IMG/VR virus record: IMGVR_UViG_2830161386_000001
Location: 1-64,000 of that record
Reading direction: 5' to 3' (one strand)
Source of the DNA: a virus
Lineage: Duplodnaviria; Caudoviricetes
DNA length: 64,000 nucleotides
Below are positions 2,586-53,924 of this stretch, piece by piece. The position numbers and the translations under genes are program-made. How positions within the stretch are numbered: the first letter of the stretch is position 1; every line of letters starts with the position of its first letter. The notes below the pieces were generated by a model. It was not told the DNA's origin and ran no database searches. It worked only from the letters and a program-made list of their open reading frames with translations.

Positions 2586-2614
2586 TATGGTGCGCATTTG
2601 GCCGCTATTTTTGC
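2586..2614 (-). promoter_or_regulatory. conserved 29-bp promoter-like motif, copy 1
   Basis: Minus strand reads GCAA-aaatagcggccaaatgc-GCACCATA; the same layout occurs at 4 intergenic sites. Confidence 0.7.
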
Positions 2615-2650
2615 GCCAAATGGCCTGATCCGGTTGGCCACCAGGAGGCA

Positions 2651-3766
2651 TCAGTGGCGGGCGTAGAGGTCGTCGATTACGGCCTTGAACTCCTTCTCCG
2701 GGAGGGGCGGGTCGTTGGACTGATTCCAGTGGTGAAGAAGCGGGAGCGCCGCGTCTTTCGGCACGTTCCAGGTGCCGGCGAGCTTCCCGACCAGGTGGCA
2801 AAGCGCGTCCCGCCGCCCGGCGATGTCCATGATGCTCTGCCCCTCTTCCATGCCGCCGACCAGGACCTTTTTGGTTTTCTCCGCGTCGACGGCAAAGCGG
2901 CCGAACCCCGGCTTGTCCAGTCCGGCCAGGTCCCCAGACGTAAGGGGCGCCCCGCCGCTCACGTCGCCGTAAACGCTCGACTCCCGGCGAAACTTCAGGC
3001 CCTCGCCCCCGATGCGCTCCCGGATGGTGTCCCCGAGGCCTTCGGTCCGGCGGTTCGGGTTTGGGTCCGGGCGGTACGGCGGGCGCCACTCCCCGGCCGC
3101 CTCCTGAACGCGCTCGGCCGCTTTACCGGGCGGCCCGTTCATCAGCTCCTCCTCCCGCACCGGAATCTTCCAGAGCTGGGAGTCTTGGTGCACGGTGCAG
3201 GGCATCCGGAGCATGTGGAGGCGGGAAAACACCCCGAGGTCCACGTGGTCGCTCGTGACGGCGGGGCCGCTTCCCTCGGTGTCGATCTCGCGGATCACGC
3301 CGGTGCCGACAAAAAGCTCCGCGACCAGCTCGAAAAGCACGTCGTGAAACCGCTCATGCGGCTGAAACGCCCCGAAGTGCTCGGTTGGAATCAAGAGATG
3401 AAAGCCCCGCCGGCCGCTGTAATACACCGCGAGATCCTCGTAGCTGAGGCCCCACTTTTCCTTCAGGGCCGCGATGGCCGAGCGGGCCGTCTCGACGCCC
3501 TTGCCAAGCTCCTCCCGGCTCGGGCCGTCGATTTCGAGGGGGATGTAGTCGGCGTACGCCGGCCCCCGGTAGCCTTTGACGCTATGGCCGTTTTCCTCCC
3601 AGTACGTCTCGATTTGAGAGTCGTACCGGAAAATTGAGATGTGCACGTTTTCCGGGCGGCGGGGGAGCCGCTCCATTTCTTGTTCGATTAGCTTCACGGG
3701 GACGAGCGTCCGGGCCCGCTGGCCGACGGCGCGGAACTCGACCCAGTGAAAGTCGGGATGAAGCAT
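2651..3766 (-). CDS. archaeo-eukaryotic-type primase/polymerase (AEP) with PriCT-like C-terminus
   Basis: Motifs DYIPLEID, YYSGRRGFHL and LRMPCTVH; C-terminal WNQSNDPPLPEKE. Confidence 0.8.
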   Translation of the reverse strand: MLHPDFHWVEFRAVGQRARTLVPVKLIEQEMERLPRRPENVHISIFRYDSQIETYWEENGHSVKGYRGPAYADYIPLEIDGPSREELGKGVETARSAIAALKEKWGLSYEDLAVYYSGRRGFHLLIPTEHFGAFQPHERFHDVLFELVAELFVGTGVIREIDTEGSGPAVTSDHVDLGVFSRLHMLRMPCTVHQDSQLWKIPVREEELMNGPPGKAAERVQEAAGEWRPPYRPDPNPNRRTEGLGDTIRERIGGEGLKFRRESSVYGDVSGGAPLTSGDLAGLDKPGFGRFAVDAEKTKKVLVGGMEEGQSIMDIAGRRDALCHLVGKLAGTWNVPKDAALPLLHHWNQSNDPPLPEKEFKAVIDDLYARH

Positions 3767-3811
3767 TCATCTGTATAGTAGGTTGGTTCTGAAGGGGATG
3801 AACAGGCGGAG

Positions 3812-4303
3812 CTAATCCGCCTGGCTGTGCTCCCGGACCGACGAGAGAAGCCGGCGGAGCGTCCCGGCCCGAAACACGACAAGGTCGCTGTCGGGCTTGT
3901 AGTCCTCCCGGATGATTTGCCCGTGGACGACCTCGTCGGGGGCCCACTGGTTGCCGACCGTGTGGCGGGAGCTGCGCTGAACCTCCGGGCTGATCGGCTC
4001 CAGTTGGAGCATCCGCATGACATGCGGCTTGAGCCAAAGCACCGCGTAGTCGGTGCCTTCCTTTTCGTCGGTGATGAGGGAGGCGCTCGACGCGTCGGGC
4101 GGGTACAGATACGAGGGCACGTCCGCCGGGCGCTTGAGCTGGAAGTGAAGCACGCCGTGGACCACGAGGTCCACCTCTTCGTCCAGCCCTCGGCTGCGCC
4201 CGTCGGAGCCCCAGGTCCGCTCCGCTTCGACGCTTGCGGTGCCGAGCTTATCGACCACCTCTCGCTCGTAGTCTTTTCCCTTTCGGGCACTTGGATGGCT
4301 CAT
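3812..4303 (-). CDS. Holliday junction resolvase-like PD-(D/E)xK nuclease
   Basis: N-terminal RKGKDYEREV followed by DLVV...QLKR, the Hjc-like pattern. Confidence 0.6.
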   Translation of the reverse strand: MSHPSARKGKDYEREVVDKLGTASVEAERTWGSDGRSRGLDEEVDLVVHGVLHFQLKRPADVPSYLYPPDASSASLITDEKEGTDYAVLWLKPHVMRMLQLEPISPEVQRSSRHTVGNQWAPDEVVHGQIIREDYKPDSDLVVFRAGTLRRLLSSVREHSQAD

Positions 4304-4327
4304 AGAGAAATAGGGATTAACTAGCGG

Positions 4328-4645
4328 CTACGCCGTCTGGTAGGCGCCGACCGCAACGTCGTCTATTGTAGCGAAAACGTTCGTTTGGCGGACCATCCGT
4401 AGCGTCTCGCCCGCGCCCGGAAAGTCCCGGCCCGATCCGCCGTGGAAGAGCACGCGGTCCCCTTCTTCGAGCTGCATGTCTCGGGACCGCCCTTTGTATC
4501 CGGAGCCGGCGGAGAGGACCGTACCGGTGACACAGGTATTTTTTGCTTCGCCGGGGATGTAAAGCCCTTCATCCGTCTGGTCGGGGTCTTTGTCCTGGTC
4601 GATGAGCACATAGTTCTGAATAGGCCGAAAGTCAGAAACGTCCAT
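4328..4645 (-). CDS. groES: co-chaperonin GroES/Cpn10 family
   Basis: 105 aa; FRPIQNYVLI...TDEGLYIP...GTVLSAGSG...EEGDRVLF. Confidence 0.85.
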   Translation of the reverse strand: MDVSDFRPIQNYVLIDQDKDPDQTDEGLYIPGEAKNTCVTGTVLSAGSGYKGRSRDMQLEEGDRVLFHGGSGRDFPGAGETLRMVRQTNVFATIDDVAVGAYQTA

Positions 4646-4756
4646 TGCAATAACGGGGGTTAAAATGGGTGGGGGCAGGCGGGCCCTACTCCGCCTGCGA
4701 GCCCCGTTTGGACAAGGTTTCCAGGGTTTCCGAAAGAATGGGCCTCGCCCCAGCTG

Positions 4757-4772
4757 AGTCCCAGCTGGGACT
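4757..4772. repeat. dispersed 16-bp palindrome AGTCCCAGCTGGGACT, copy 1
   Basis: Exact palindrome, intergenic. Confidence 0.95.
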
Positions 4773-13349: not shown

Positions 13350-14004
13350 ACGAAGATCGGTTGGGATTGGAAGAAGACTGTGACGAGTGGTTTTGGAGAC
13401 TGATCAGGACAGACCGGTAGCTTTGCCGGACCGCTTCCGCTCGCTTTTTCGCGTCGCTGAGGCGGGAGCACGACACGCCGTGGGCGCCGAAGACGGCCTC
13501 GCACACGGCGTTTCGGTCGTAGGGCCCGGCGGCCCGGACCGTCTCGCGAACCGCGCTCTTGTCGCCGAACATCGACCCGCGAGCCGACACGTCGAGGGTG
13601 GCCTGAAGAAGGCCGCCGACGTTCCGCGTCATGCTCGCGTCGACCGCGCTTGTTTTCTGGACGGCCTTGCGGAGAAAAGGGGCGTCGGTGCCTGCGTCAA
13701 AGCAAAACAGGCGCGACTCCCCGAGCCCGGGGCCGGCCTTGTCCGCAAGAGAGGCAAAATGGGGCCACACTGTCTCCGGGCCGCCCCAGTATTCAGAGCG
13801 GTTCTTAAGCTCCTCGACCGACCGAATGTCCTGGCGGGCCAGGTACGAGAGATCGGACTTTTCGGGATAGCGTGGCGTGATGTAGCAGGAAAACTCCTGC
13901 CACACCGACGAGAGATCGTCCGGGCAAAAAAGAGCCCCGACCTGAAACACCTCGTGGGTGAAGAGGTCGGGGCCCGTTGGGTCTTGGCTCAAAACGATTG
14001 TCAT
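13312..14004 (-). CDS. degenerate DEDDh/DnaQ-like exonuclease-fold protein
   Basis: TGPD..THEVFQVGA and DAPFLRK resemble ExoI/ExoII motifs, but the acidic residues are not canonical. Confidence 0.4.
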   Translation of the reverse strand: MTIVLSQDPTGPDLFTHEVFQVGALFCPDDLSSVWQEFSCYITPRYPEKSDLSYLARQDIRSVEELKNRSEYWGGPETVWPHFASLADKAGPGLGESRLFCFDAGTDAPFLRKAVQKTSAVDASMTRNVGGLLQATLDVSARGSMFGDKSAVRETVRAAGPYDRNAVCEAVFGAHGVSCSRLSDAKKRAEAVRQSYRSVLISLQNHSSQSSSNPNRSSYGPRNGPTIRRR

Positions 14005-14076
14005 AGAAAAAAGAGAGTTTGGGGCCTCCGTGCATCTATGTGGTGGGCACTTCCCGTCCGTTTTTGCACGCAGGGC

Positions 14077-19284: not shown

Positions 19285-19327
19285 AAAAAAAGCCCCAGAC
19301 GCCCGGTCAAGCCGGGCGCCTGAAGCT
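19285..19327 (-). terminator. intrinsic terminator
   Basis: A7 run plus the stem GACGCCCGG/CCGGGCGCC. Confidence 0.55.
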
Positions 19328-19364
19328 CAGTTGAAGTCTTCGTTGAGTGCCGACAGGAACGGCG

Positions 19365-20288
19365 CTAGAGCAAATTCAGGTACTCCTTGCTGCCGACGCC
19401 GTAGTCCTCAACCGCGTCCCCGGCCCCGATGCCGGAGGGGCGCTCGAAGCCAGGTTGCTTGAGGGTGTGCCGGAAGGCGTTCTGGCTCACGTTTTCGGTC
19501 TCGTCGCCGAGGTGGATAATATTCTCGGCGTCCCGTCGGAGCTGGTAGGTCTGGTCCCAGAGCTTCTGGGCCCGCGTCTCTTGGACCTTGTGGGAGGAGA
19601 GGTAGTGCTCCAGCTCCTCGTCGACAAATTCGGCCAGCTCCATCGGGGTCATCCCCTTCAGGGCCGGCTGGCCGACGGAGTTGTAGTCGGGGAACTGCTT
19701 CAGGATGCGTCCTGCCTCCTTCCGCAGTTCCTGGACGTCGGTGATGAGCTCCCCCTTCCGGGTTTTGACCGTATCGATTCCGTCCTGGGACTTGTTGTCC
19801 AGGTCCATCTTCGGGACGTTTCTCGACCGGTTGATGTCGTTGGCCAGGAGGTCGATGTCTACCCCCATATCCTCCAGTTCCGGGTCAATCGACCAGATGT
19901 CGTTTGCCGCGTGGACGTTCTCCTCCGGGCGCTTTTCGCTCGGGTTCATCTGGCGCTTGTCCACGTACGGGCTGGAGGCATACTCCATGCGCTCTCCGAG
20001 AAGCGTCTCGTCCATTTCAGGAAGCCGCTCCTCCCGGTAGAACTGGATGCTGCCGAGCTGCCCGCGGTTCGACCCTGGGCGGTAGCCCTGGTCGTACTGG
20101 GCGATCACCGCCCGCTCGCCGCCGAAGTCCGGCTCGCCGTGGGGGTTTCGCACCGCCTCGACGCGGTGCAAGTTATGGTTGGCCTCGCCGATCTCGCCTC
20201 GGCGGTTGGCATCTTCAGCCATGTGCTGAACATCTTCTTTCAGCTTCTGAAAACTAATGTCGTCGTTTACCTCTACTGGATTAGGCAT
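19365..20288 (-). CDS. hypothetical protein
   Basis: Acidic ORF; likely start MPNPVEV at 20288. Confidence 0.7.
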   Translation of the reverse strand: MPNPVEVNDDISFQKLKEDVQHMAEDANRRGEIGEANHNLHRVEAVRNPHGEPDFGGERAVIAQYDQGYRPGSNRGQLGSIQFYREERLPEMDETLLGERMEYASSPYVDKRQMNPSEKRPEENVHAANDIWSIDPELEDMGVDIDLLANDINRSRNVPKMDLDNKSQDGIDTVKTRKGELITDVQELRKEAGRILKQFPDYNSVGQPALKGMTPMELAEFVDEELEHYLSSHKVQETRAQKLWDQTYQLRRDAENIIHLGDETENVSQNAFRHTLKQPGFERPSGIGAGDAVEDYGVGSKEYLNLL

Positions 20289-20334
20289 AGAGCTATGGTA
20301 TCTGTTGTTAGCGTTGAGATTAGGAAATCTGAAC

Positions 20335-21354
20335 CTACAGGCCCAGAGCATCTTCGATGTTCGGGTACGCGTTGAAGAAGCCAGTTTGCGCCGCCTGCTG
20401 CTCCATCATCTGCCAGAGCTGCGGGAAAGTGTACTGGCCTGCTGCCTTCCGGTAGCATGGAATCGCGACCTCGTCGGCGAACTCCTCCCAGCGGTCCGTG
20501 TGGCGGTTTTTCCCGCCGTAGATCCGGCGGACCCACTCGGGGAGGCCCTTCGAGCGCTGCCGCCGGATGAACTTCGCCATGCGACGCCTTGTCATTTTGG
20601 CGTTTTTCTGCGGCACAGTTTGCTGGGGCGCGGTGCCTTGGCTTCCCGGAACCCGGCGGTAGCCGGACTGCTGGCCTGACTGCCTTCCTGATCGCCGGGT
20701 GGACTGCTGGCCTGACCGGCGGGTGGACCGGCGGGTAGATTGCCCGCTGGCGGCTGGGGCCTGCGCGCCGCCCGCCGCCCGGGCTGGGACCTGGGGCCCA
20801 GGTACTTGTGGGCCCGGTACTTGCGGGCCGACCGCCTGCGCGCCTCCGGCAGCCGGAGCCTGCATCGGCGCTTGGCCGACCGGGTTTTGCTGGGCGTGCT
20901 GCACAAATGCCCGGCTTACCTGCCCGATCTTGTCGAGCGCGCTTCCGATGTCGTCGTTGGCGCGGGACAGATCGTCCGGCTCGTAGGCCTTCGGCTCTTG
21001 GACTCGGCGGATGTCCCCGCCGGAGCCCTGGATGCCGAGGGCCTCCCACCGGCCTTGCGGGTCGGTGTAGAGCCCGATCTTCGCCGTAAGCCACGGGCTG
21101 CCCTCCGGGTCGCGAAGCAGAAGCGGCACCTGCGTTGTCTCCCCGCGGGGAAGGGAGAGCGGGCCGGCAAGCGTCGCGCCGATGCTTCGCAGCTGGTTTG
21201 GCAGCTGGGCCAGCCGCTCCTTCGCGCCGCTTTCCCGCAACTGGGCCCGGATCTCATCAAAGGTCCGCACCTCGCTTGCCACAGACTGGGCAAACGTTTG
21301 GCCCATCTGCTCTTGCAGCTGGGCTAGGTAAGGAGTATTTTTGTATAGCTGCAT
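20335..21354 (-). CDS. hypothetical protein with low-complexity GPQVP and STRRS repeats
   Basis: 339-aa ORF in a tightly packed run of genes. Confidence 0.7.
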   Translation of the reverse strand: MQLYKNTPYLAQLQEQMGQTFAQSVASEVRTFDEIRAQLRESGAKERLAQLPNQLRSIGATLAGPLSLPRGETTQVPLLLRDPEGSPWLTAKIGLYTDPQGRWEALGIQGSGGDIRRVQEPKAYEPDDLSRANDDIGSALDKIGQVSRAFVQHAQQNPVGQAPMQAPAAGGAQAVGPQVPGPQVPGPQVPARAAGGAQAPAASGQSTRRSTRRSGQQSTRRSGRQSGQQSGYRRVPGSQGTAPQQTVPQKNAKMTRRRMAKFIRRQRSKGLPEWVRRIYGGKNRHTDRWEEFADEVAIPCYRKAAGQYTFPQLWQMMEQQAAQTGFFNAYPNIEDALGL

Positions 21355-21363
21355 GATAAGTAA

Positions 21364-21981
21364 TCACTCTATGTGAAAGTTGCGGAGATGAGGGGGAAGC
21401 TCCTCTTCGGCATCGCCCTCGCCCGAATCGGGACCCGCGTCGCCGCTTTGGCCGCCTTGTTCTTCTGGCAGGTCCGGCGGCGAGGGGACGTTGTCGGGGC
21501 CGCTGGCCGGCGGGGAAATTCCGCCTTCCGGCGCCTCCTCTTGGGGCGGGGCCTCGCCCGGAAGCGGCTCGTTCCCGCCGAGGGGTGAGGGGCCGGGGCT
21601 GTATTCCAGGTTTCCCCCTGACGGCTCTCTGCCGGAATCCGCCGCGGGCGGCTGGATCTGCGAGGCGCCTTGCTGGCTGGAGGAGGTGCCCGCGCCTTCG
21701 CTCATCGCGTCCCCGACCGTGTCCATGAGAGACATATAGCCTTTCGAGTCCATGATAATCTGGACATCGCTTCCGCAATGGACACACTGAAAATTGGGCT
21801 TGTTTTCAGTGACCTTCTCCATCACGAGGTCCATTACCGCAGACGGGTCCTCCCTCAAGTCAATTCGCTCTTTCGCGGCCTGCCGGATCTCGGTGTGGAG
21901 CTTCAGGCCTCGGGCGTCGAGGTTGCCTTGCCGGCAGGGCCCGTCCCGTTGGCATCCGTTAATGATATTTAGTTCGACCAT
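21364..21981 (-). CDS. hypothetical protein with Cys pairs and P/G/E-rich tail
   Basis: CQRDGPC and CVHC may bind a metal. Confidence 0.65.
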   Translation of the reverse strand: MVELNIINGCQRDGPCRQGNLDARGLKLHTEIRQAAKERIDLREDPSAVMDLVMEKVTENKPNFQCVHCGSDVQIIMDSKGYMSLMDTVGDAMSEGAGTSSSQQGASQIQPPAADSGREPSGGNLEYSPGPSPLGGNEPLPGEAPPQEEAPEGGISPPASGPDNVPSPPDLPEEQGGQSGDAGPDSGEGDAEEELPPHLRNFHIE

Positions 21982-21996
21982 ACCGATTATCGTTTA

Positions 21997-22335
21997 CTAG
22001 AGAAAGACATCTGCGAGGAAGCCGACGAGCCGCAGGCCGTCGGACATGTTTTGCCGCCGCATTTGCCGCTTGGCTTGGCGGCGCCGCTCCACCATGTCGT
22101 CCACGGCCAGGCCCGTTTGCAGCGCCGTCTCGCCAGCTTTGAGGACCTGGCGGCTGGTTTCCCGGACCGACTGGCGGCTGACGCTGAATTTGTAGTAGAC
22201 CCCGTCGTCCTGTTGTTGGTGGTGGCCATTGGTCTTTGGGCCGCCCATCTGCGGATTCGCTTGACCGGAGATCTCTTGCTCTTTGATCTCCTCGTCCACG
22301 TGCTCGGAGAAGCTTTGGTACTGATCGTTTTGCAT
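21997..22335 (-). CDS. hypothetical protein (112 aa)
   Basis: ORF in the operon; hydrophobic C-terminus. Confidence 0.6.
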   Translation of the reverse strand: MQNDQYQSFSEHVDEEIKEQEISGQANPQMGGPKTNGHHQQQDDGVYYKFSVSRQSVRETSRQVLKAGETALQTGLAVDDMVERRRQAKRQMRRQNMSDGLRLVGFLADVFL

Positions 22336-22366
22336 AGATGAAGCTGTAATTTCTATTGGATGATAG

Positions 22367-22669
22367 TTAGTTGTGCGCTTCGAGAGTCTCGGCCACTTCG
22401 CTGATCGCGCCGATGCCCTCCACGACCCGATCAGCGATACGGTCGTACCGCTTGGTCGTGAAGTAGTAATCGGCGGCCGACCAGATCAGGCCGCCCAGGC
22501 CGATGGCGGCGGCAAGGCCCGCCAGAAAGAAAAAGACGTGCTCCCGCTTGACCTGGACCTCGGTCCGGTCGAGCGCTTCTTCCGACGGACTGAAGCCGTG
22601 TGGCATCTGGCCCTGTTGTTGGGCCTGGCCTTGCGGCTCGCCCTCTTCCGATTCAGAATTATCTGCCAT
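22367..22669 (-). CDS. small single-pass membrane protein
   Basis: Hydrophobic helix VFFFLAGLAAAIGLGGLIW; ATG at 22669, downstream of motif copy 2. Confidence 0.65.
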   Translation of the reverse strand: MADNSESEEGEPQGQAQQQGQMPHGFSPSEEALDRTEVQVKREHVFFFLAGLAAAIGLGGLIWSAADYYFTTKRYDRIADRVVEGIGAISEVAETLEAHN

Positions 22670-22732
22670 AGCAACTAGCGTTGAAAAAAAGATTATATTG
22701 AAAGACGCGACACAACGCCCTCGCGCCATAGT

Positions 22733-22761
22733 TATGGTGCGCAAATGTCTGCAATACTTGC
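22733..22761 (-). promoter_or_regulatory. conserved 29-bp promoter-like motif, copy 2
   Basis: Minus strand reads GCAA-gtattgcagacatttgc-GCACCATA. Confidence 0.7.
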
Positions 22762-25700
22762 ATGCCGCCCAATTCCATCGAACAAAATCAGGCCGATTTC
22801 TCCGGGCGCTACACGCCCATCGACAGCCCGCAGTACCAGCAGGTCCAGGCCCAGGCCTACTACGAGCGGATGCGCGCTCACGTCAACGAGCGCAGCCAAA
22901 GCCTCATGTCCGGCGGTCAAGGCCGGATCACCACCGGCCGGGAAAGCGCCCGCGGGCTCGTAACCGGCGGGATGTACGACCCCTCTCGCCGCTCCTACCG
23001 GTCCCGCTCCCGCCAGCAGCGAGCCGATGCTCAGGACATCACCGAGCGGGCCATGCAGCTCCCCATGAACGCTTTCGACGCGTTTAACATTTTGGGGTCA
23101 ATGACGCTGGTAGAAAACCCCATTGAAGAAGGTGTGGGAAACATGCTCTACCGGGGAAGTGGCACTGGAGGCACGCTCGGGTTCTTTGGGTCTAGCGCCG
23201 CCGGATTTACGGCAGGGGCCGTCGGAGGAACGGCAGCGATTGCCGCCAGTGAAGGGGCACTTCGGTACACTGGCACCAGAGATGCCTTTAATCAATTTGA
23301 GGACATCCGCGACCTCCAGCAGGTCAGCCGCCCGATGACAGCGGGCACGGCAAGCGGGCCCCGTGGCCGCATGAGCCGGGAGATGGCCCAAGAGGTAACC
23401 GCCGACATGGCCGAGCAGGGGCGGCTCTCCACGATGATGGCCGACGGGGAGTCCTTCAGCGAAATGCAAGAGCAGGCGGGCATCTTGGCCGACTACAAGC
23501 TCATGGAGGGGGTCCGCGACGCCGACGAGTTTGAGCGGAAGTTCAGCGAGCTCAAAGAAGGGGTCAAGCGCGTAATGGAGGTGCTCGGCACGACTTTTGA
23601 GGAGGGGGCCAGCCTACTTAGCGACTTTCGGAACGTTGGCATCACGCCGGGAACCGGGGTGGATCTTCTGGATCAGGCCCGCATGACGAGCGCCCAATTT
23701 GGAACCAACTTCCGGCAGACCCACGCCGCCGGAATGAAATCCGCGATGGCGATGCAGGGGACCGGAATGTCGATGGCCGCCGGGTATCAAATGGGCCAGC
23801 AGGCCCAAGGGATGGCCCAAACCATCTACGAGGGGCGCTACCTCGACGAGAACACAATTTACAACATGGGCGGGCAGCAGGGCATCCGGATGAACCTCCA
23901 GCGCGGCCAGATGCGGTTTATGGAGGGCCCCTCGTTTACTGCCATGATGATGGGGGCAAGCCGGGACGGCCAGTTCGACGGCCAAAACATCCTTCAAACC
24001 CTGGCAGGGGAGCGCACGCCGCAGCAAAACGCAAATGCGGCGGGCCAGAGCATCGACTCCCTTGAAGACGTCTATTCGTACCGAGACAACTCGCGGGAGG
24101 CGATCAGCAGCCTCATTGAGGACAATCCCGCAATTATGCAGGGCCTTCAGGTCCGGACTGTGATGCAGCAAGCCCGGGCCGCCGGCATGAACCCCGAAGA
24201 AATGACGCGGGGGGAGCTCGGGCAGTTTGCCGCCGACGCGACGCCGATGAACGCGCAGGAGTTTGAGGCCGCCGCCGCGGCGGTTGAGTCCTTGCCTGAA
24301 ACCTACGGCCGGCGGGCCCAAGAGGAGCGCCGCACCGCCGAGTCGCGGGCAGACGATCGGTACACCACTGGTCCGCTGGAGCAGACGATGGAGGGCCTCC
24401 GGGAGCTTCCGCTCTTTCGCGGGGCAGTATCTGAAAGCGCAGACATTGCCCGCCGCACCCGAGACGCGGTGTACAACATGTCGACCGCCATCAGCCAAGA
24501 AGTGAACGAGACGTTTACAGGCCAAAAAACCGTGACCGTCTCCGGGGGCACCCAGCGGTTCTTTAGCCAGGAGGCGCTTGCGGGGATGAGCCAAGAGGCG
24601 CGGCAGCGAATGGGCGTAAATGAGGAGGGAGAAGTAACGGGAGAAAACGTTGCAACGTACTACGAAGACGAGGGAAGCGACCTGTTTGGGTCAACCGAGG
24701 CGGCAGACGTGGTTGAAGAGCGGGCTCGGTCTGACGAGGACTTCAACCCGATGAAGGTCTCTCAGAACACCTTTGAGCGGCGGGATGGACGGGTCACGCT
24801 GTCTCCAGATCAAATCTCGCAGCTGGAATCTCAAAGCGACCAAGTAAACGGGCTGGGCGAGCTTGGGGAGCCGGTTCGGGGCGGAGAGGGGCGGTCCTTT
24901 AGCTACCAAGAGCTTGCAAGCGCGGGCGTGACGGCGTCGGAGGCAGATATGGGCCCGACAGCTCAAGACGTCATGTCGGACTTTAGTTTAATGCGCCCGG
25001 GCCAAAACTCCATGGCTCTGGAGAAGGCAACGGTCAACGCGCTTGACCCGGCAAGCGACGACGCGGTCTACCTCATGAACCCGGAGCAAACCGGCCAGGT
25101 GCAAAGCACTGGGAAAGCCGCAGCTCAGCTTATGGACGAGGCGCTAAGCCGGGCTCCCGAGCGGTTCAGCGACCTTAGCACACAAGAATCTGAAAGCGGA
25201 GAGAGCGCCCGTGACGTCTACATGGACGTGAAAGACCGGATGCAGCAGGTTAGCGAAAGCCGCCGCAACCGAATTCTAAACACGTCCGGCGGGAACGCCG
25301 CCCGAGAGGTCCGAAAGCTCCAGCGAGACGTTCTTCAAGAGGGGCTTGACATCGATCCTGATTTGGAAGGAGAAGCCTTAGATAAAGCTATATCTGAGAA
25401 GCTCAGCAACATTGAAGGTGGAAAAGGTGCGGTCGGAAAAGTCTTCAAAGACGCAACCGGCCAACAGCTGTCATCCCTGATCCAACGGTATGGCCCGGAG
25501 TACGGCACGCTTAGTGAAATAAGCCCCAGCGAACAGGAAAATATAATGGATCAGCGGACGGAAATGATCGACGAAAACCTTGAAGCGATGGGGGAAGGCG
25601 GCACGTTCTACGACACCGAAGAGGCCGATTACCTCCAGGAGATGGAATCGGAGGTTATGATCATGGCCCACGCAAAGTCTATTGGAAGGGAGAACTTGTC

Positions 25701-26109
25701 CGACGCTCAGCTTGACGCTCTCGAAAAGGCGGAAAACACGATTGCAAGCCGCGCTCCAGACGCGATGGACGAGGCGAAGAAGCTAACGTCTCGCCTCGCA
25801 AATCAGTCAACGCAGCAAGAGCTCGTTAACCAAGCCCGAGTTGCTCAATCCGACCTTGCCGGCTCCGGAAGTGACGAACAGGCAAGCGGCACGGGAGCAC
25901 AAGTCCAGACCGCTTCGAGCGACCAGGAAGCCCGAGACATGATTAAAAACAAGATGATTCAGCTTGCACAAGTCATCGAAGAGCTTCAAAGCAACCAGAA
26001 AGAAATTATCGACCTTGCGGATCCGGGAAGCGGGTCGAAAGGCGGCACAGGAGGCGGGACGGGGCGCGGAAGCGCAGGCGGGGCTCTAGGGCTCGGAATT
26101 ATCGATTAG
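22762..26109 (+). CDS. tape-measure-like protein
   Basis: 1115 aa, A/G/M/Q-rich and apparently helical, with an N-terminal Gly/Ala hydrophobic stretch; the only large plus-strand gene. Confidence 0.5.
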   Translation: MPPNSIEQNQADFSGRYTPIDSPQYQQVQAQAYYERMRAHVNERSQSLMSGGQGRITTGRESARGLVTGGMYDPSRRSYRSRSRQQRADAQDITERAMQLPMNAFDAFNILGSMTLVENPIEEGVGNMLYRGSGTGGTLGFFGSSAAGFTAGAVGGTAAIAASEGALRYTGTRDAFNQFEDIRDLQQVSRPMTAGTASGPRGRMSREMAQEVTADMAEQGRLSTMMADGESFSEMQEQAGILADYKLMEGVRDADEFERKFSELKEGVKRVMEVLGTTFEEGASLLSDFRNVGITPGTGVDLLDQARMTSAQFGTNFRQTHAAGMKSAMAMQGTGMSMAAGYQMGQQAQGMAQTIYEGRYLDENTIYNMGGQQGIRMNLQRGQMRFMEGPSFTAMMMGASRDGQFDGQNILQTLAGERTPQQNANAAGQSIDSLEDVYSYRDNSREAISSLIEDNPAIMQGLQVRTVMQQARAAGMNPEEMTRGELGQFAADATPMNAQEFEAAAAAVESLPETYGRRAQEERRTAESRADDRYTTGPLEQTMEGLRELPLFRGAVSESADIARRTRDAVYNMSTAISQEVNETFTGQKTVTVSGGTQRFFSQEALAGMSQEARQRMGVNEEGEVTGENVATYYEDEGSDLFGSTEAADVVEERARSDEDFNPMKVSQNTFERRDGRVTLSPDQISQLESQSDQVNGLGELGEPVRGGEGRSFSYQELASAGVTASEADMGPTAQDVMSDFSLMRPGQNSMALEKATVNALDPASDDAVYLMNPEQTGQVQSTGKAAAQLMDEALSRAPERFSDLSTQESESGESARDVYMDVKDRMQQVSESRRNRILNTSGGNAAREVRKLQRDVLQEGLDIDPDLEGEALDKAISEKLSNIEGGKGAVGKVFKDATGQQLSSLIQRYGPEYGTLSEISPSEQENIMDQRTEMIDENLEAMGEGGTFYDTEEADYLQEMESEVMIMAHAKSIGRENLSDAQLDALEKAENTIASRAPDAMDEAKKLTSRLANQSTQQELVNQARVAQSDLAGSGSDEQASGTGAQVQTASSDQEARDMIKNKMIQLAQVIEELQSNQKEIIDLADPGSGSKGGTGGGTGRGSAGGALGLGIID

Positions 26110-26431: not shown

Positions 26432-27112
26432 TTAGCCCCCTTCCACCAGCGAGTGGAAGCGGAACTGATCATCGACGGCATACTCTGGTGCCCGCCCCTT
26501 CGCCCACTCCGGCTTGGCCCCAGACCGGGGCGACCAGAAGTGGTCAACCCCTTTAAGGGGCCGGTACTTTTCCGGCAGCGTAAGCATCATCCACGCCGTC
26601 CGGACCGAGAGATGCCACTTCAGATTGTCTTCCCCGTAATCGCTCAGATCGAGGGTATCGACCTCTTGAGCTTCACGGGTAATCCCCTCGAAGGCCCATC
26701 GCTGCTGGACGACCCGAGGCACCGTATCGGGAAAGCGTTCGAGCCGTTTTCGCTCGATTACGACTGAGCCCACGTACGACATCAGCCGCATCGTCGGGGC
26801 TTCGGTGTACATCACGCGAGCCATGTGGAGAAGCTCCCGGTCGGTCGGCCGGTCGACCCGGGCCTTCTGGAGCTGCGCCTCTTTGTGCTGCAAAAGGTGC
26901 CCGAGGGCTTTTGCCCGAACGCGAGCGGGAAAGCCGCACATCTTCAGCGACTCCCGCGGCTGATGCGCAACAGAGCACGTCTCTGAGCCGTAACGCACAA
27001 GCTCTTTTTCAAGGTCGATGTCCAGACCTTCGCTCCCACAGCCGGTGAGGGCGAAAAGCAAAAAGGCGAGCACGAACGTGAGTCCAATTGTGTAAAGTCC
27101 TCCTCGTCTCAT
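26432..27112 (-). CDS. SleB/Hydrolase_2-family cell wall hydrolase with lipoprotein signal
   Basis: MRRG...LFALTGC lipobox; MARVMYTEA, VGSVVIER, FPDTV..VV.Q..AF and HFW.P....PEWA. Confidence 0.75.
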   Translation of the reverse strand: MRRGGLYTIGLTFVLAFLLFALTGCGSEGLDIDLEKELVRYGSETCSVAHQPRESLKMCGFPARVRAKALGHLLQHKEAQLQKARVDRPTDRELLHMARVMYTEAPTMRLMSYVGSVVIERKRLERFPDTVPRVVQQRWAFEGITREAQEVDTLDLSDYGEDNLKWHLSVRTAWMMLTLPEKYRPLKGVDHFWSPRSGAKPEWAKGRAPEYAVDDQFRFHSLVEGG

Positions 27113-27139: not shown

Positions 27140-27166
27140 AAAAAGAAAAAGCCCCCTCTCGGGGGC
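27140..27166 (-). terminator. intrinsic terminator
   Basis: GCCCCC-TCTC-GGGGGC with an adjacent A-run. Confidence 0.6.
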
Positions 27167-27182
27167 CAGATGACGGCTCATC

Positions 27183-27353: not shown

Positions 27354-27410
27354 GGTATCATATCCAAGTGAGAGAGTAAGCGGAAGCAAGCATGTCCCTC
27401 GCTTCATTAC

Positions 27411-27439
27411 TATGGTGCTCACTTGGGCGCCACTTTTGC
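27411..27439 (-). promoter_or_regulatory. conserved 29-bp promoter-like motif, copy 3
   Basis: Minus strand reads GCAA-aagtggcgcccaagtga-GCACCATA. Confidence 0.7.
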
Positions 27440-38833: not shown

Positions 38834-39871
38834 TCATGAGATGCGGTCGATTTCTTCTATGATTTTGTCTTTGTCGCGGCTGATGGTGGAGGAGCTGACG
38901 CCGGTTTTGTCTGCGACGGTGTCGATCAGTCCCTTGTTCATGCCAATCGGGTTTTTGGGCGCCCCGTCCAAAATGCCGGGAAACATGTGCTCCATAAGTA
39001 CCTGCCGGCGGTTGCTCGCGTCGGCGTATACAAGGTGAATTGCCTCCTTCTTGTCCGCGAGCCGGTCGGGGACCAGGTCCTCCTCGTCGATGGTCTGCTC
39101 CATGTCGTATTCGTCGGCCACTCCCATCAGGGCTTTGCCCGCCTTGTCTTTCGACACGGAGAACTGCTCCGCAAACTCCGCCCGCGTGGGGCGCCGGTTT
39201 TTCTGCTCTTTGACCTCGTCTATATAGTCTTTAATTTTGCCCAGGTTATCGCCAATGTCGCCGCTGCCGGGGGTGTTTGCGTCTCCGAACATTCGCACGA
39301 CTTCGCCGAGGCCCTGATACACGTAGTTTCCGACGTGGGTTGAAAGTTTGGCGTTGCCCTCCCTCGGGTCGTAGTTGTCGATTGCTTTCAAGGCCTCTCC
39401 ACGCCTGTTGGTGATAACGGCCGGCTTGGTCACGGCCTCGTCTTCGATTTTGTGAACCGCGTCCATCGTCATGTTTTTTACCGTCTGAAAGACCCGGCCC
39501 CTCATTCTCGGGTCGCCCCGCTCGGTCTCTTTGGTCCCAAATTTCCAGGCCCGCCAGAGGTTGTGCTGCTGGTCGTCTGGAAGGTTCTTGGCGGCTTCCC
39601 ACATCTCGCTATCTACGTCTTCAGGAGCGTCTTCCTCCATCTCGAAACTGGGGAGCCCGTAGCGCTCCGGGTTGGCGCTGGAGGGGCGGGCGCCTTTGTC
39701 TTTTAGAACGTTCATCTCCCCCTCGTAGGAGAGGTCGCTGTTTTGCAGCACTTCGGTGGCGTCGGCGTCCCCATCGTAGTTTTCAAACACCTCTTTTCGG
39801 ACCGGGGTGTCCCGGAAGAAGTCCGCCCCGTCGTCCCCGTCAAACAAGTCGTTTTCGTCAAGTGCGTCCAT
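38834..39871 (-). CDS. sigma-70-family RNA polymerase sigma factor (FliA/SigF-like, divergent)
   Basis: Region 2 LKAIDNYDPREGNAKLSTHV; region 3 RRPTRAEFAEQFSVS; region 4 HTH VADKTGVSSSTISR. Confidence 0.8.
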   Translation of the reverse strand: MDALDENDLFDGDDGADFFRDTPVRKEVFENYDGDADATEVLQNSDLSYEGEMNVLKDKGARPSSANPERYGLPSFEMEEDAPEDVDSEMWEAAKNLPDDQQHNLWRAWKFGTKETERGDPRMRGRVFQTVKNMTMDAVHKIEDEAVTKPAVITNRRGEALKAIDNYDPREGNAKLSTHVGNYVYQGLGEVVRMFGDANTPGSGDIGDNLGKIKDYIDEVKEQKNRRPTRAEFAEQFSVSKDKAGKALMGVADEYDMEQTIDEEDLVPDRLADKKEAIHLVYADASNRRQVLMEHMFPGILDGAPKNPIGMNKGLIDTVADKTGVSSSTISRDKDKIIEEIDRIS

Positions 39872-49670: not shown

Positions 49671-52600
49671 AGAGGTCAACTTCCTTTGTCGTCGTGTTCA
49701 CGGCGCCGGAGCTGTCTTTCACCCCGAGCCGAACGGTAAATTTCGTGCTCCGGCTCCCCCGCGACCCGCTTCGAAAGCGGTTGAACGTTTTGGTTTTTTG
49801 GGCAGCGTCCTTGTTGTATTCGGTATTCCATTTGCCGTCGTTGATCCAGTCCCACCGGTACTTCAGGTCGTCACCGTCGGGGTGGGAGCTTTCCGATGCG
49901 TCAAATTTAATTGTAGAGCGCTCCCGCCCGTCTCGGTTCCGGTTGATTGTGGTCGACACGCTGGCGGTCGGGAAGGTTACGTCGGTGGTCTCGCTGTATA
50001 CGTCCCGGTCGGCCTCCGGCACCTCCGGATTTGTGGTGCGGCCCTCAAACGTGACGGTTTTCGTGCCCCCGCTATTGACGGCCCGCTCAAAGACGCTTAC
50101 GCTTTGCCACCCGGTAAAGCCGTTTCCGTCGTGCCAGTCAACGCGAAACTCCCATTTGTACCCCTCGGGGGAGAAGTTCGCCCCCGGGGTTACGACCCGG
50201 ATCTTCTGGCCGGGCGTCAAAATATCGGGGGCTTTTCCGGGGGACTCCTCTCCTCCGTTTTCGCTTACGAGAAGCGTGTTTGCCGTATCGGTGTCGACCG
50301 AATCGTTTTCGTCTCGGGCCTCCGCCTCGACGCGAACCTCGTTGATCGTGACGTTTTCATTTTCGCTTGGCGGGCGGTTTAGGTCCCGCTGCGGGCCGCC
50401 CCACGCGGTCCACTCCCCAAAATCGCGCTCCCCGTTTGCAACCCGAAAGCGGTACTCAAGCCCTCCGCTTGCGGTGGTGGAGCTTCCGGAGGCGTCGACG
50501 CTGAGGGTGCTCGTGCTTGCGGTATAGTAAAACGAGGATATTGTGGCGGTAACGAAGGACACCGACACGCCTACGTTGGTCGTCGCCCCCAGGGCAGTTT
50601 GCGCCTCGACGTTAATGGGCTGGGAGGCGCTGGTGTCGCTGTAGTTATAAGAAATCTCTTTGCTGGTTGTCGGCCCGGCGTCCAAGGACCCGTCGCCGGT
50701 CCAGTCGACCGAGTAGCTGAACTCGACGCCCTCGACGTCGGGCGGGTCGATTTGCAGGGTCGCGACGCTTCCCCGGGCTTTCACCGACGCGTTCGCGTCG
50801 TCGAAATTCGGAAAGTAGATTTCCTTGGTGCCCTCGTCTTTCGCCTCCCGGCCGTCCCGGACCTCCAGGGCTACCTGGTAGAACCGCCCTGGCGTGCCGT
50901 CGGGCAAGGAAAACTGCTTTTCGGCCGTGGGGCTCTCCTTCCAGCTTAGCTTCGCCCAACCGCTTGTAAGCTCTCCGTCGAGCCCGACCGGCGGGGTGCC
51001 TTCTGGCACGCTTGTCGTGGTCTTGTAGATCGTCTCTGTTTCCGGGTAGTACACCCGCGCCCCGCTCTCGTAGCCGGAGCTGCTTGACCAGGTCTGAAAG
51101 GCCATCCGGTACTCCAGGGGGAACGACGGGTTGCGGACGCTTTCCGACCCGTCTAGCGTGGCGGTTTTGTCCTCGAACGTAACCCGCGGAATTGCCTTCG
51201 GCAAAATAATTGTGTCGGTCGCCTCGTCGGTCGCGTCGACCTCGTCGACCGCCTGAACGCGAATGGTCTTCGTGCCGCCGTCTTCAAAAACGTGTTCGAT
51301 GGTCTCCTGCTCTCCAAGGGCCGTGTTCCAGGCCCCGTCCTCGCTCCAGTCGAACCGGTAGCGGTTGTCCAGCCCGTTGGGGTGACCGCTCTCCGAGGCG
51401 CTGATCTGGACCCGCTTTCCGCCGAGGGCCTCGGTCTTGAGGCGGGCGTTGGGGGCCTTAAATTCCTCAAGCGGGACCTCCTCGGGGCTTTTCTTCTCGA
51501 CGATGGACTCGGCCTCCCCCTCCAAGGGGTCGATTTTGCTGTCGGCCTTGTCGTAAAACCGGACGATGTCTTTGCTGGCCGGCTTGGCAGACTGCTCGGC
51601 AAGGGTCGAAAACCGCTCCCCCAGATTGGGGTGCGCTTCAAACCCTCCTCCCGACGGCTGGGCCGGCTGGTCGGTTTCTGCGGTGTGGACCGACCGCCCC
51701 ATCTCGTCGATAAAGGAGATCTCGATGCGCCGTTTGTGCGAGGAGGAGTACCGCCCGAGATCCACGATGCCGGACTTCACGTCTGAGTCCGGGTCGCTTT
51801 GAAGCATCCACCGCAGGGTCGCGGCCGAAAACGGCCGGAAGGTCGGCTCGTTGTAGCGCCACTCCCCGCTCGACCGGGTGGCCACGCGGTGGCGAAGCCC
51901 CAGAAGCACGGCGTCGCTGTCGGGGTGGGGCACCTCCACGTTTGCCACGAGCGTGTTCATCGTGCGGTTGAGGCCCCGCTCGGTGCCGGGGTTCCCGACC
52001 GGGGACCCGTCGCGGTACCCGGTGCCTTTGACCCGCCCGGTGTCTGGGCGAGAAACGGTCACCTCCAGGCTGTCGGACTGGCGGGCGGACTGGTCCTGGC
52101 GCCGGGCCTTGACCACGATTTCGTGCGGGCCGGGCATCGCCTCTGCGCTCAGCACCGGGGTCGGCCGCCCGGTCGTCGTGTTTTCCGCCCGGTCTTTCGC
52201 CCGCTCCCTGCTTCCGGACTCCGGGTCCGAGATCATAAGCAGCCGAGAGGCGCCGTTGTAAATGGCCCCGTTTTGCGGGCCGCTAAAGCGAAGGTCCGTC
52301 CCCAGCTCCAAGACGCTTCCCTCGATGTCGACAATGGGGTAGTCGGTTCCGTCGACGTCGAGATAGTAGGTGTGAGCGCCGACCGCCTCCCGAAGGGCCT
52401 CCACCGCCGTCTGGTCGGAGTCTCCCCCTTGCGGGCCTGCAACACGCTTGACGCGGACGCTGCGCCGCCCCGACGGGGTGACGTACACGCCGGGCCACCC
52501 GACCGTCACAATGAGGCGGGCCTTCGGCGCCGGGCGGATTTCGGGCCGCTCGTTTCCCTCCTCGATCAGCCCCTCCAAGCGCTCGCGGATGGCCGGTTCC

Positions 52601-52827
52601 GTGGCGTAACGAACCGCGCCGATCGGGGCCATCTCCTGGTCGACGGTTTGAACTTCCCTGCCGCCGAGCTTGCCCTCGCTGAAAAGAAGATCGATCTCCT
52701 GCGGGAGCGACCCGCGGTCGAAGGCCCGCTCGACCCGCTCGACGAGCCCCGGGTTGATGATTCGGGGCCGCAGGTGATGCAAGCGCGGGCGGGGCGCGGC
52801 GGGCTGTCGGAGGTTTTGGGTCGGCAT
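49660..52827 (-). CDS. virion protein with multiple PKD/Ig-like domains
   Basis: Repeated DASESS.P....YRWDW..DG and YRFDW..DG motifs. Confidence 0.75.
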   Translation of the reverse strand: MPTQNLRQPAAPRPRLHHLRPRIINPGLVERVERAFDRGSLPQEIDLLFSEGKLGGREVQTVDQEMAPIGAVRYATEPAIRERLEGLIEEGNERPEIRPAPKARLIVTVGWPGVYVTPSGRRSVRVKRVAGPQGGDSDQTAVEALREAVGAHTYYLDVDGTDYPIVDIEGSVLELGTDLRFSGPQNGAIYNGASRLLMISDPESGSRERAKDRAENTTTGRPTPVLSAEAMPGPHEIVVKARRQDQSARQSDSLEVTVSRPDTGRVKGTGYRDGSPVGNPGTERGLNRTMNTLVANVEVPHPDSDAVLLGLRHRVATRSSGEWRYNEPTFRPFSAATLRWMLQSDPDSDVKSGIVDLGRYSSSHKRRIEISFIDEMGRSVHTAETDQPAQPSGGGFEAHPNLGERFSTLAEQSAKPASKDIVRFYDKADSKIDPLEGEAESIVEKKSPEEVPLEEFKAPNARLKTEALGGKRVQISASESGHPNGLDNRYRFDWSEDGAWNTALGEQETIEHVFEDGGTKTIRVQAVDEVDATDEATDTIILPKAIPRVTFEDKTATLDGSESVRNPSFPLEYRMAFQTWSSSSGYESGARVYYPETETIYKTTTSVPEGTPPVGLDGELTSGWAKLSWKESPTAEKQFSLPDGTPGRFYQVALEVRDGREAKDEGTKEIYFPNFDDANASVKARGSVATLQIDPPDVEGVEFSYSVDWTGDGSLDAGPTTSKEISYNYSDTSASQPINVEAQTALGATTNVGVSVSFVTATISSFYYTASTSTLSVDASGSSTTASGGLEYRFRVANGERDFGEWTAWGGPQRDLNRPPSENENVTINEVRVEAEARDENDSVDTDTANTLLVSENGGEESPGKAPDILTPGQKIRVVTPGANFSPEGYKWEFRVDWHDGNGFTGWQSVSVFERAVNSGGTKTVTFEGRTTNPEVPEADRDVYSETTDVTFPTASVSTTINRNRDGRERSTIKFDASESSHPDGDDLKYRWDWINDGKWNTEYNKDAAQKTKTFNRFRSGSRGSRSTKFTVRLGVKDSSGAVNTTTKEVDLSNF

Positions 52828-52967
52828 GCGCCGATGCGGTTTAGCAGGCCGCCCGTCCGGGCAGCCGGGAACAACACGTTAACAAACTAACGGGCCGGGC
52901 GCGGGCCGTTGACGCCCAGCGGTCTTTCGGCCTTCTTTTTGGCCGCAGGATTTGCGGCCCTGTCGAC

Positions 52968-53007
52968 AAAAAAAAGACCCCACCCCCTTTAGAGAGGGGC
53001 GGGGCCT
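52968..53007 (-). terminator. intrinsic terminator
   Basis: A8 run plus the stem GACCCCACCCC/GGGGCGGGGCC. Confidence 0.55.
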
Positions 53008-53014
53008 AGGCGCC

Positions 53015-53030
53015 AGTCCCAGCTGGGACT
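53015..53030. repeat. 16-bp palindrome, copy 7
   Basis: Exact copy; 53009-53036 is the exact reverse complement of 4751-4778. Confidence 0.95.
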
Positions 53031-53039
53031 CAGCTGAGC

Positions 53040-53840
53040 TTAAGCCTGCGCCGCTTCGGCGGGCTCGTCCGCCTCGCCGTTCTCTGCGGCATCCGACGTC
53101 TGATCCTCTTCATCTTCTTGGAGGGCGGCAATCGTCTCCTCCGCCGCCTCAATAACCTGGTCGCGGCTTTCGTTTTGGATGATTGCCCTCACGAGAGAGG
53201 GCCGGGCGTTTTCGAGGCCCTGAACACTGACGATTATACTTCTCGCCACAGACTCGTCCAGAGCGCGGCTCCGAATATCCCAAAGCTCGGGAATCTCTCT
53301 CAAGTCGCCAATCCGAGACATAATCGCGTTCTCCAGCGACTGGATTGGCTCGTACCCACTGCCCAGCTCATCGACGTCTTCAACGCCGACCGCGTCGGCG
53401 ATTTGCTCCATCGCCAATCGGGTTTTTCTCTGCTCTCTTCGAAGAATGCGCTGGGCTTCCTCCGAGTCTACCTCATCCTGCACGTACGGCAGGTCAATTT
53501 CGACCTGCTCTTTCGGACGCATAATCCCGTGCAGCTTCTTGCCAGCAGCGGTGCCGCCGGTTATACCCGCAGCAAGGCACAGCCCTTCGACAGTGTCGTC
53601 GCTCAGGCCTTCGGTGGCAGCGTCAAGCTGCCCCAATATTACGTTTTCGGAGCCCTTGCTCTGAAGGGCATCTCGCAGAGCTAAACCTGCTCCTGCGCCG
53701 AACAAGGTTGAGCCGAGGAACGTGGCGTGTGCTGAATAGCGCCGTACTGTCCGGCGGAATTCTTCTTGGTCGTCAGGGGTAAGAAAATTCTTCGTTGAGT
53801 TCCAGGCGTTCTGAATTGAATTTAGCATGGTAGGCACCAT
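53040..53840 (-). CDS. hypothetical protein with two Gly-rich hydrophobic helices
   Basis: FLGSTLFGAGAGLAL and GLCLAAGITGGTAAG; visibly lower GC than neighbouring genes. Confidence 0.7.
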   Translation of the reverse strand: MVPTMLNSIQNAWNSTKNFLTPDDQEEFRRTVRRYSAHATFLGSTLFGAGAGLALRDALQSKGSENVILGQLDAATEGLSDDTVEGLCLAAGITGGTAAGKKLHGIMRPKEQVEIDLPYVQDEVDSEEAQRILRREQRKTRLAMEQIADAVGVEDVDELGSGYEPIQSLENAIMSRIGDLREIPELWDIRSRALDESVARSIIVSVQGLENARPSLVRAIIQNESRDQVIEAAEETIAALQEDEEDQTSDAAENGEADEPAEAAQA

Positions 53841-53895
53841 GGCTCTTTATTTATGTAGAGTGAAAGCAACAGACACACACCGCCCGTTGCATAAC

Positions 53896-53924
53896 TATGG
53901 TGCCGACTTGCCTGCTATATTTGC
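53896..53924 (-). promoter_or_regulatory. conserved 29-bp promoter-like motif, copy 4
   Basis: Minus strand reads GCAA-atatagcaggcaagtcg-GCACCATA. Confidence 0.7.

Follow-up and report, generated by a model that had tools for sequence, protein, structure and literature searches.

A two-block motif with a leader hairpin: a probable phage-specific promoter of dispersed orphan-gene units in a salt-lake phage

Which factor reads the 29-bp element that recurs on one strand of the phage record IMGVR_UViG_2830161386_000001? The window analyzed here, which covers the initial 64 kb of the 197,771-bp genome of a salt-lake phage (a virus record with terminal repeats), holds four copies of this element (GCAA..T..CACCATA), which a sequence-only reading had proposed to be a dedicated bipartite promoter heading scattered orphan-gene cassettes. 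We found that the element recurs across the whole genome, that a hairpin follows most of its copies, and that the same genome encodes both a sigma-70-family factor and a fused RNA polymerase (RNAP). Altogether, we consider it probable that the motif forms the central part of a sigma-70-family-type promoter specific to the phage, combined with a 5' leader hairpin and heading dispersed orphan-gene units.

Copies of the motif and their anatomy

All four window copies were recovered on the minus strand at exactly the coordinates proposed (Table 1), and 18 of their 29 positions are identical without indels when the sequences are compared by eye. The pattern given by the sequence-only reading finds the same four window sites only, even when up to three mismatches are allowed, while 100 shuffles gave a mean of 0.00 matches and none reached four. 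By itself, GCACCATA occurs four times in the window, always on the minus strand, against 0.36 expected. The four copies and the dispersed set of units that they head are real, but their number was too low: the whole genome contains 14 full copies plus one degenerate copy. All 14 lie on the minus (coding) strand, and a control read backwards gave 0. Similarly, the genome contains 15 CACCATA sites on the minus strand and none on the plus strand, with GCAA at the fixed distance in 14 of the 15. Counted at the last A of CACCATA, the 14 sites are 2586, 22733, 27411, 53896, 108012, 132371, 143751, 149395, 150983, 171128, 188077, 189948, 191523, and 193970. When a weight matrix built from these copies was scanned against the genome, the 14 scored 35–50 bits and the degenerate copy (14037–14067) 25.8 bits, with the rest reaching at most 5.5 bits on the minus strand and 6.7 bits on the plus strand. 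No hairpin follows the degenerate copy, and an ATG at 14004 begins 32 nt downstream of it.

Genes were called with a simple custom codon-usage caller, which placed 187 of 190 on the minus strand. Relative to these calls, 13 of the 14 copies are intergenic, and the copies are co-oriented with the genes, with a start codon 43–99 nt downstream. GCAA-N18-CACCA is present in 14 of 132 intergenic regions, compared with a shuffle maximum of 5. A two-block search of the same regions returned no other strong motif; the next, unrelated one reaches 7 regions, owing to a palindrome. Motif searches of the genome found no second conserved motif for the sigma factor to read, and sigma-70-type, Bacteroidota-type, and T4-late-type patterns, written down from general knowledge, showed no coding-strand excess in the genome.

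Aligned without indels, the 14 copies give the consensus YGCAAAWAT-N13-(G)CACCATA-N3-AT-R, in which 12 positions are invariant (G1, C2, A3, A4, T8, and C23 through A29). The base preceding GCAA is C or T in every copy, and preferences are seen for A5 (12/14), A16 (11/14), T19 (11/14), and G22 (10/14). Further downstream, positions 33 and 34 are AT in 12 copies and position 35 is a purine in all 14. The two blocks occupy positions 0–8 and 22–29, and the hexamers YGCAAA and CACCAT are separated by 17 bp, inside the 16–18 bp of a two-block promoter of the sigma-70 family; the location upstream of co-oriented genes (13 of 14 intergenic) likewise agrees with such a promoter. Conserved spacer bases had earlier been taken to suggest extra protein contacts. 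Across the 14 copies these bases are mostly preferences (10, 9, 8, 11, and 11 of 14 at positions 10, 11, 15, 16, and 19), which weakens that argument.

We place the predicted transcription start at the always-purine base 6 nt past CACCATA, after the conserved AT. If position 35 is the start, two of the invariant CACCATA bases, A24 and T28, come to lie at −11 and −7, and −11 A and −7 T are the bases flipped out by sigma region 2. A dedicated rather than a housekeeping sigma factor is favored by the invariant C's that depart from the consensus and by the upstream block, whose 9 nt exceed the usual −35 hexamer. The proposed dedicated bipartite promoter is consistent with the fixed spacing, the exclusive use of the coding strand, the intergenic location, and the distance to the start codon. 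As judged from anatomy and conservation, the promoter reading is well supported, yet unproven.

Could the same sites be early promoters read by host RNAP with a host sigma factor, housekeeping or alternative, so that a phage factor is unneeded? We regard this as unlikely, although it would explain why the units consist of small orphan genes, which are typical of early host takeover, and why four copies are grouped in a 6-kb small-gene region (188–194 kb). Moreover, a phage polymerase and sigma factor absent from the virion would first require the host enzyme, and an A and a T at −11 and −7 from the predicted start could be used by any sigma-70-family holoenzyme. However, a scan for the housekeeping consensus (TTGACA/TATAAT, as set in the scan) gave no match at the four window sites, as the sequence-only reading had also noted, and this mismatch fits an alternative or phage sigma factor. 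In addition, three positions of the downstream block that deviate from the consensus hold an invariant C, and a relative whose GC content is very different (46% vs 61% in the phage) retains the motif.

The host to be considered here is hinted at by two observations. Shine-Dalgarno motifs are depleted before the genes (12 of 190 vs 21% background), whose upstream regions are A/C-rich, and such depletion presumably points to a Bacteroidota-like host. DNA matches to the window come from hypersaline lake, brine, and saltern metagenomes of eight studies, and one of the matches may be the source sample itself. Together, depletion and matches hint at a halophilic Bacteroidota-like host; the phage DnaE, whose best bacterial matches are just 39% identical (Acidimicrobiia and others), does not resolve the host. 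The housekeeping promoter motif of Bacteroidota is TAnnTTTG. This sequence mismatches the phage motif and is not enriched on the coding strand, with 16 sites vs 35 on the other strand, which again speaks against a host sigma factor as the reader.

Another repeated element occupies mainly the intergenic space. The perfect 16-nt palindrome AGTCCCAGCTGGGACT occurs in the window at 4760, 10328, 17557, 31078, 39928, 53018, 62126, and 63830, and at about 25 further intergenic places across the genome; a few copies lie within very large genes, and a T run is often absent after it. Its core CCCAGCTGGG, with at most one mismatch, gives 46 matches, mostly intergenic and typically 7–40 nt past a stop codon. 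At 143788 and 171165, the palindrome stands directly upstream of the motif.

The leader hairpin and the units behind the motif

The sequence-only reading had picked up neither a leader hairpin nor the phage beta-beta' RNAP. Using a custom stem search compared with the intergenic background, we found a stem of at least 6 pairs starting 4–6 nt past CACCATA in 11 of the 14 copies, with loops of 6–11 nt. The same test succeeded at 1226 of the 25342 remaining intergenic positions (4.8%; binomial P ~1e-12). Stem sequences vary among the copies, the paired arms being, for instance, AGACGAG/CTCGTCT, GGCGCGA/TCGCGTC, GAAGCGAG/CTTGCTTC, AGCCGGG/CCCGGCT, and CAGAAGG/CCTTCTG. Several stems include G-U pairs, which fit pairing in RNA rather than in DNA. 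The junction between the 5' arm and the loop is conserved and CGAGGG-like, with G at position 42 in 13 of 14 copies, and this suggests a sequence-specific partner too. The hairpin is followed by a pyrimidine-rich, G-poor leader and then by a start codon without a Shine-Dalgarno site.

These features raise the question of whether the element acts mainly at the RNA level, either as a processing or antitermination site made of a linear box and a hairpin or as a promoter-proximal attenuator. Variable stems with retained pairing and G-U pairs would suit such a role. So would the hairpin of copy 1 (2580–2559), which the terminator scan flags, the T runs that follow a few nt beyond the stem in some hairpins elsewhere in the genome, and the similar hairpin-plus-pyrimidine leaders in intergenic regions that lack the motif. 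Nevertheless, we find this reading very improbable. An RNA box has no need of GCAA and T placed exactly 18 and 14 nt upstream across a variable stretch, and both blocks are retained in the three copies that lack a hairpin. The scan leaves the hairpins of copies 2–4 unflagged, most hairpins have no proper U tract, and the GC-rich stem directly followed by a U tract that marks an intrinsic terminator is not what the leader hairpins display. Furthermore, Rfam contains no family matching the motif leaders. RNAalifold, run on a MAFFT alignment of the leaders, predicted no pairs, because the loops vary in length and the 3' arms do not line up. We read the hairpin as part of the leader of a probable promoter, most likely shielding the mRNA end or offering a phage protein a place to bind; attenuation is less likely, since most copies have no U tract.

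In the window, the last A of CACCATA lies 60, 63, 57, and 55 nt from the proposed start codons, in keeping with the earlier estimate of about 55–65 bp. Copy 27411 has an alternative ATG 49 nt downstream, which opens a 309-aa frame; the first third of this long frame, from 27361, scores poorly as coding. A terminator scan located a real intrinsic terminator at the end of each of the four window units (Table 1), and none of their eight genes has a Pfam or PHROG match. Outside the window, no Pfam match was found for the first genes behind nine other copies, nor for the zinc-ribbon-like gene behind copy 171128.

Two observations concern the DNA around individual copies. One of only three plus-strand genes (22762–26109, 1115 aa, without a clear family) has its ATG at 22762, abutting the 5' end of motif copy 2, and its promoter must therefore overlap the leader of the minus-strand unit. 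At the other end of the genome, contigs from two of four DNA runs join copies 189948 and 193970 (189972 to 193995), omitting 4,022 bp. Nine letters at this junction fit both sides, and depth is low across 190.7–193.0 kb in three of the four runs. The promoter-leader repeats seem to act as recombination points for the gain and loss of cassettes between strains. If true, repeats serving as cassette break points would be one route of orphan-gene shuffling.

A phage sigma factor and a fused RNA polymerase

The sequence-only reading had named the product of 38834–39871 as the phage sigma factor, and profiles, family alignment, and a structure model place this 345-aa protein (P0121) in the sigma-70 family. 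The first family scans gave no match at E ≤0.01. Searched as a single sequence, the protein matched the NCBIfam family SigB/F/G at E 7.6e-6 and, among structures, sigma-F (1l0o) at E 0.011. Extending the search by profile to 1.84 billion proteins yielded 222 relatives; contigs with 72% and 53% homologues (P0122 and P0123) are also known. A profile of the resulting 52-member family matched SigA, RpoS, SigB, and SigF chains at E 3e-19 to 2e-17. SigA was matched at E 3.2e-19 over profile positions 37–256 and SigF (1l0o) at E 1.6e-17 over positions 23–256, which indicates homology to regions 2–4 of known sigma factors. Among the 52 members, Pfam finds Sigma70_r3 in 39 and Sigma70_r4 in 9. An AlphaFold model built on the 52-member alignment reached a pLDDT of 81.9, and the Foldseek matches listed at ranks 1–50 are sigma-factor chains or holoenzyme complexes, each with a probability of 1.00, as expected for a sigma fold. 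The global TM scores of these matches are low (0.21–0.27), which is expected of a flexible multi-domain protein.

Given one sharp motif and one full-length sigma factor in the genome, pairing the two is the simplest reading, and P0121 is most likely the reader of the motif. A second protein deserves mention. The 117-aa product of 146044–146397 (minus strand) shows similarity to the sigma factor solely in the C-terminal, region-4-like part of the latter; its segment 146125–146361 is 34% identical to sigma residues 262–341 (E 1.8e-9). This protein could be a binder of the −35 block or a competitor.

Such a paralogue also makes it conceivable that the fused RNAP reads the motif with another specificity factor, for example this 117-aa protein, or with none, while the sigma factor of 38834–39871 serves a weaker promoter class. 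An upstream block of 9 nt, beyond the usual length of a −35 hexamer, would agree with this, and the known phage multisubunit polymerases use non-sigma factors according to the accessible part of a review (PMC7598289). We nonetheless judge it quite improbable. The fixed two-block geometry with a spacing of about 17 bp is the hallmark of a full sigma factor that has both region 2 and region 4, the motif searches of the genome gave P0121 no other conserved motif to serve, and the sigma family accompanies this polymerase family in both other phages tested.

The polymerase is a single 2453-aa beta-beta' fusion (171201–178562, minus strand) with an intein in its beta' part. Its domain matches comprise Rpb2_6 (E 3e-60), Rpb1_2/4/5, and Intein_splicing. 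Both beta and beta' domains are present in 49 of the 120 RNAP homologues listed, on contigs of up to 210 kb, and the catalytic aspartates are invariant in the nine closest of these. A search with PF00940 (T7-like single-subunit polymerase) gave no match, but its positive control was silent in every genome.

Under the promoter reading, transcription would begin at the purine 6 nt beyond CACCATA, and the RNA would open with a stem-loop of about 7 pairs, followed by the G-poor leader, which has no Shine-Dalgarno site. Promoters of this kind, 14 in all and four of them in the window, would head small orphan-gene units. The likeliest reader would be the phage sigma factor, working with either the phage fused RNAP or the host core, and the hairpin would protect the 5' end of the mRNA or be bound by a protein. 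A more far-reaching version, which we put forward tentatively and consider possible rather than probable, is that initiation is self-contained. All 14 promoters would then be read by the phage sigma factor docked on the fused, intein-bearing RNAP of the phage, and the cassettes would be independent of host polymerase, start their mRNAs with hairpins, and be gained or lost through recombination between the repeats.

Other features of the genome are given here for context. Family matches in the window include an rIIA-like gene, a baseplate wedge protein, and a tail protein with a lysozyme domain, and the genome outside the window encodes a DnaE-type polymerase and a giant SNF2 helicase. A plasmid-like module at 181602–184522 comprises a plus-strand RepA-type initiator (182669–184522) and a ParA-type ATPase (181602–182393) that heads the operon reaching the RNAP gene; their divergent gap contains six direct repeats of the 14-nt unit (T/C)ACACGACAGTACA. 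The combination of RepA, repeats, and ParA suggests a phage-plasmid lifestyle or a plasmid-type origin. A tmRNA gene lies at 187224–187709 on the minus strand (Rfam RF00023, 70 bits), and ARAGORN reports tRNA-Lys at 137230–137303, tRNA-Glu at 189372–189459, and an odd tRNA at 187040–187112.

Table 1. Coordinates of the motif copies, leader hairpins, units, and candidate sigma factor in the window
Feature	Position	Strand	Remark
Motif copy 1 (GCAA..T..CACCATA)	2586..2614	-	Top weight-matrix score, 50.5 bits
Motif copy 2	22733..22761	-	5' end adjoins ATG (22762) of plus-strand 1115-aa gene
Motif copy 3	27411..27439	-	Pattern match
Motif copy 4	53896..53924	-	Pattern match
Degenerate 15th copy (GCAA..CACCACATA)	14037..14067	-	One extra base; T absent at position 8
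Leader hairpin, copy 1	2559..2580	-	7 pairs, 8-nt loop, 6 nt past CACCATA, then T run
Leader hairpin, copy 2	22704..22727	-	7 pairs (one G-U), 10-nt loop
Leader hairpin, copy 3	27383..27405	-	8 pairs (one G-U), 7-nt loop
Leader hairpin, copy 4	53866..53890	-	10 pairs (three G-U), 5-nt loop
Unit 1 orphan open reading frame (ORF), 86 aa	2265..2525	-	No Pfam/PHROG match
Unit 1 intrinsic terminator	2217..2256	-	18 pairs, then T7
Unit 2, five orphan genes	19365..22669	-	No Pfam/PHROG match
Unit 2 genes	22367-22669, 21997-22335, 21364-21981, 20335-21354, 19365-20288	-	
Unit 2 intrinsic terminator	19290..19328	-	17 pairs
Unit 3 orphan ORF, 56 aa	27183..27353	-	No Pfam/PHROG match
Unit 3 intrinsic terminator	27150..27167	-	Then cell-wall hydrolase gene 26432-27073
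Unit 4 orphan ORF, 266 aa	53040..53840	-	No Pfam/PHROG match
Unit 4 intrinsic terminator	52975..53007	-	13 pairs, then T8
Divergent sigma-70-family factor P0121, 345 aa	38834..39871	-	Candidate reader of the motif

Relatives and known systems

The motif is conserved in one relative, the metagenome contig L143 (46% GC), whose RNAP is 55% identical to that of the phage. Three GCAA-N19-ACCAT sites lie on its coding strand and 0 on the other. One of them begins 4 nt past the RNAP stop codon, the same place as copy 171128, and the order that follows (a zinc-ribbon-like gene, then a paralogous gene array) matches the locus of that copy. Position 35 is a purine in all three L143 sites, preceded by AT in two. 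The paralogous arrays themselves, at 165980–170619 in the genome and L143:16420–19529, consist of genes of about 140–175 aa with a common C-terminal motif. We did not find the motif in the metagenome relatives L144–L163, whose RNAPs are 27–31% identical, and an RNAP protein search of IMG/VR returned no relative. Two pattern searches were discarded: GCAAANAT-N14-CACCATA gave at least 118 single matches in IMG/VR, unrelated and mostly on low-GC contigs, without the upstream context or a convincing hairpin, and all five matches to CACCATA-N5-AGACGAGGG were unrelated.

The sigma family is also present in both of the more distant phages tested that encode a related polymerase, Vibrio phage D69 and the culturable Salmonella phage Arash (E 1.5e-48 and 6.5e-42). 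In Arash, the annotated sigma gene lies two genes past a structural cell-wall hydrolase, and in the present genome the sigma gene adjoins the equivalent gene. A strongly strand-biased intergenic sequence is found in each of the two phages, GGTATAAG in Arash (OQ632216.1; 31 vs 2) and GTTATAAG in D69 (OZ195729.1; 24 vs 4), the former located some tens of nt upstream of Shine-Dalgarno sites and start codons. It is likely that GGTATAAG and GTTATAAG represent a promoter class in these sigma-plus-polymerase phages. Apparent GTTC..CACCA matches in Arash and D69 proved to be tRNA 3' ends and were set aside.

Several results count against the picture of a sigma-read promoter with a leader hairpin, and they have to be weighed together. 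The pairing of sigma factor and motif is argued from parsimony alone. Pfam Sigma70_r3 matches P0121 itself at E 0.012, short of the cut-off, and Sigma70_r2 was found in 0 of the 52 family members and has no match in the genome. Tail and baseplate genes surround the sigma gene, whereas the small orphans behind the motif look “early”, which makes any timing of the motif units tentative. The region upstream of the RNAP operon has no motif copy, and copy 108012 sits within a called gene. Three of the 14 copies have no hairpin, and only one of the three L143 sites has a strong one. Finally, a search for the two-block motif in Arash and D69 gave nothing above shuffles, and the motifs that these phages carry are different and single-block.

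The motif provides a sharply defined recognition sequence for an uncultivated phage lineage of about 200 kb, and its 14 sites delimit a probable set of orphan genes under this control. The motif and P0121 are a candidate portable promoter-sigma pair. Literature searches, made outside supplementary files, turned up no publication about phage Arash, about this motif, or about a phage combining a fused beta-beta' polymerase with a sigma factor.

Phage-specific promoters as such are well known, and the motif would be a new instance rather than a new principle. Promoters read by phage sigma factors include those of Bacillus phage SPO1 (gp28 and gp33/34) and the late promoters of T4 (gp55). The present system resembles SPO1 and T4 late transcription in having its own sigma-family protein and sharply conserved, scattered promoters unlike the host housekeeping consensus. 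It differs in that both large polymerase subunits are also phage-encoded and fused into one protein, in the letters of the motif, and in the hairpin at a fixed distance; its pairing of sigma factor and motif, moreover, is a proposed one.

The hairpin has its own points of comparison. Stabilizing stem-loops at the 5' terminus are known in bacterial and phage mRNAs, as in the ompA leader. Here too, a stem-loop of variable stem sequence is placed at the predicted 5' end or a few nt away from it, whereas the conserved CGAGGG-like arm-loop junction is a difference, and the start site is a predicted one. In the promoter of the N4 virion polymerase, a short hairpin with a loop of 3 nt precedes the start. 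In contrast, the hairpin described here lies downstream of both blocks, with loops of 5–10 nt. In a T7-like promoter, about 23 bp up to the start form a single uninterrupted conserved stretch, unlike the two blocks with a variable middle found here.

A further comparison is with Arash and D69, which share related polymerase genes, a sigma factor of the same family, and a strongly strand-biased motif. Their motif, however, has no upstream block and other letters, Shine-Dalgarno sites are present, and no hairpin was noted. In the accessible part of PMC7598289, the promoters of phiKZ and AR9 are described as one AT-rich block in the −10 region or a short motif located at the start, and their polymerases as split into 4–5 pieces without a sigma homologue. 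To the extent of that account, phiKZ and AR9 are similar in having a computable conserved motif upstream of operons in a phage with beta/beta'-like subunits. They are dissimilar in that the present motif is GC-rich and two-block, a sigma-70-family gene is present, and the polymerase is one fused protein much closer to the bacterial enzymes (Rpb2_6, E 3e-60). As far as their accessible text goes, two reviews (one of them PMC7598289) divide large phages between those that encode a polymerase but lack a sigma factor and those that encode a sigma factor but lack a polymerase, and do not describe the pairing of a bacterial-type beta-beta' polymerase with a sigma factor. The present lineage has both, and a self-contained system of sigma factor and RNAP would, if true, fall outside this two-way split.

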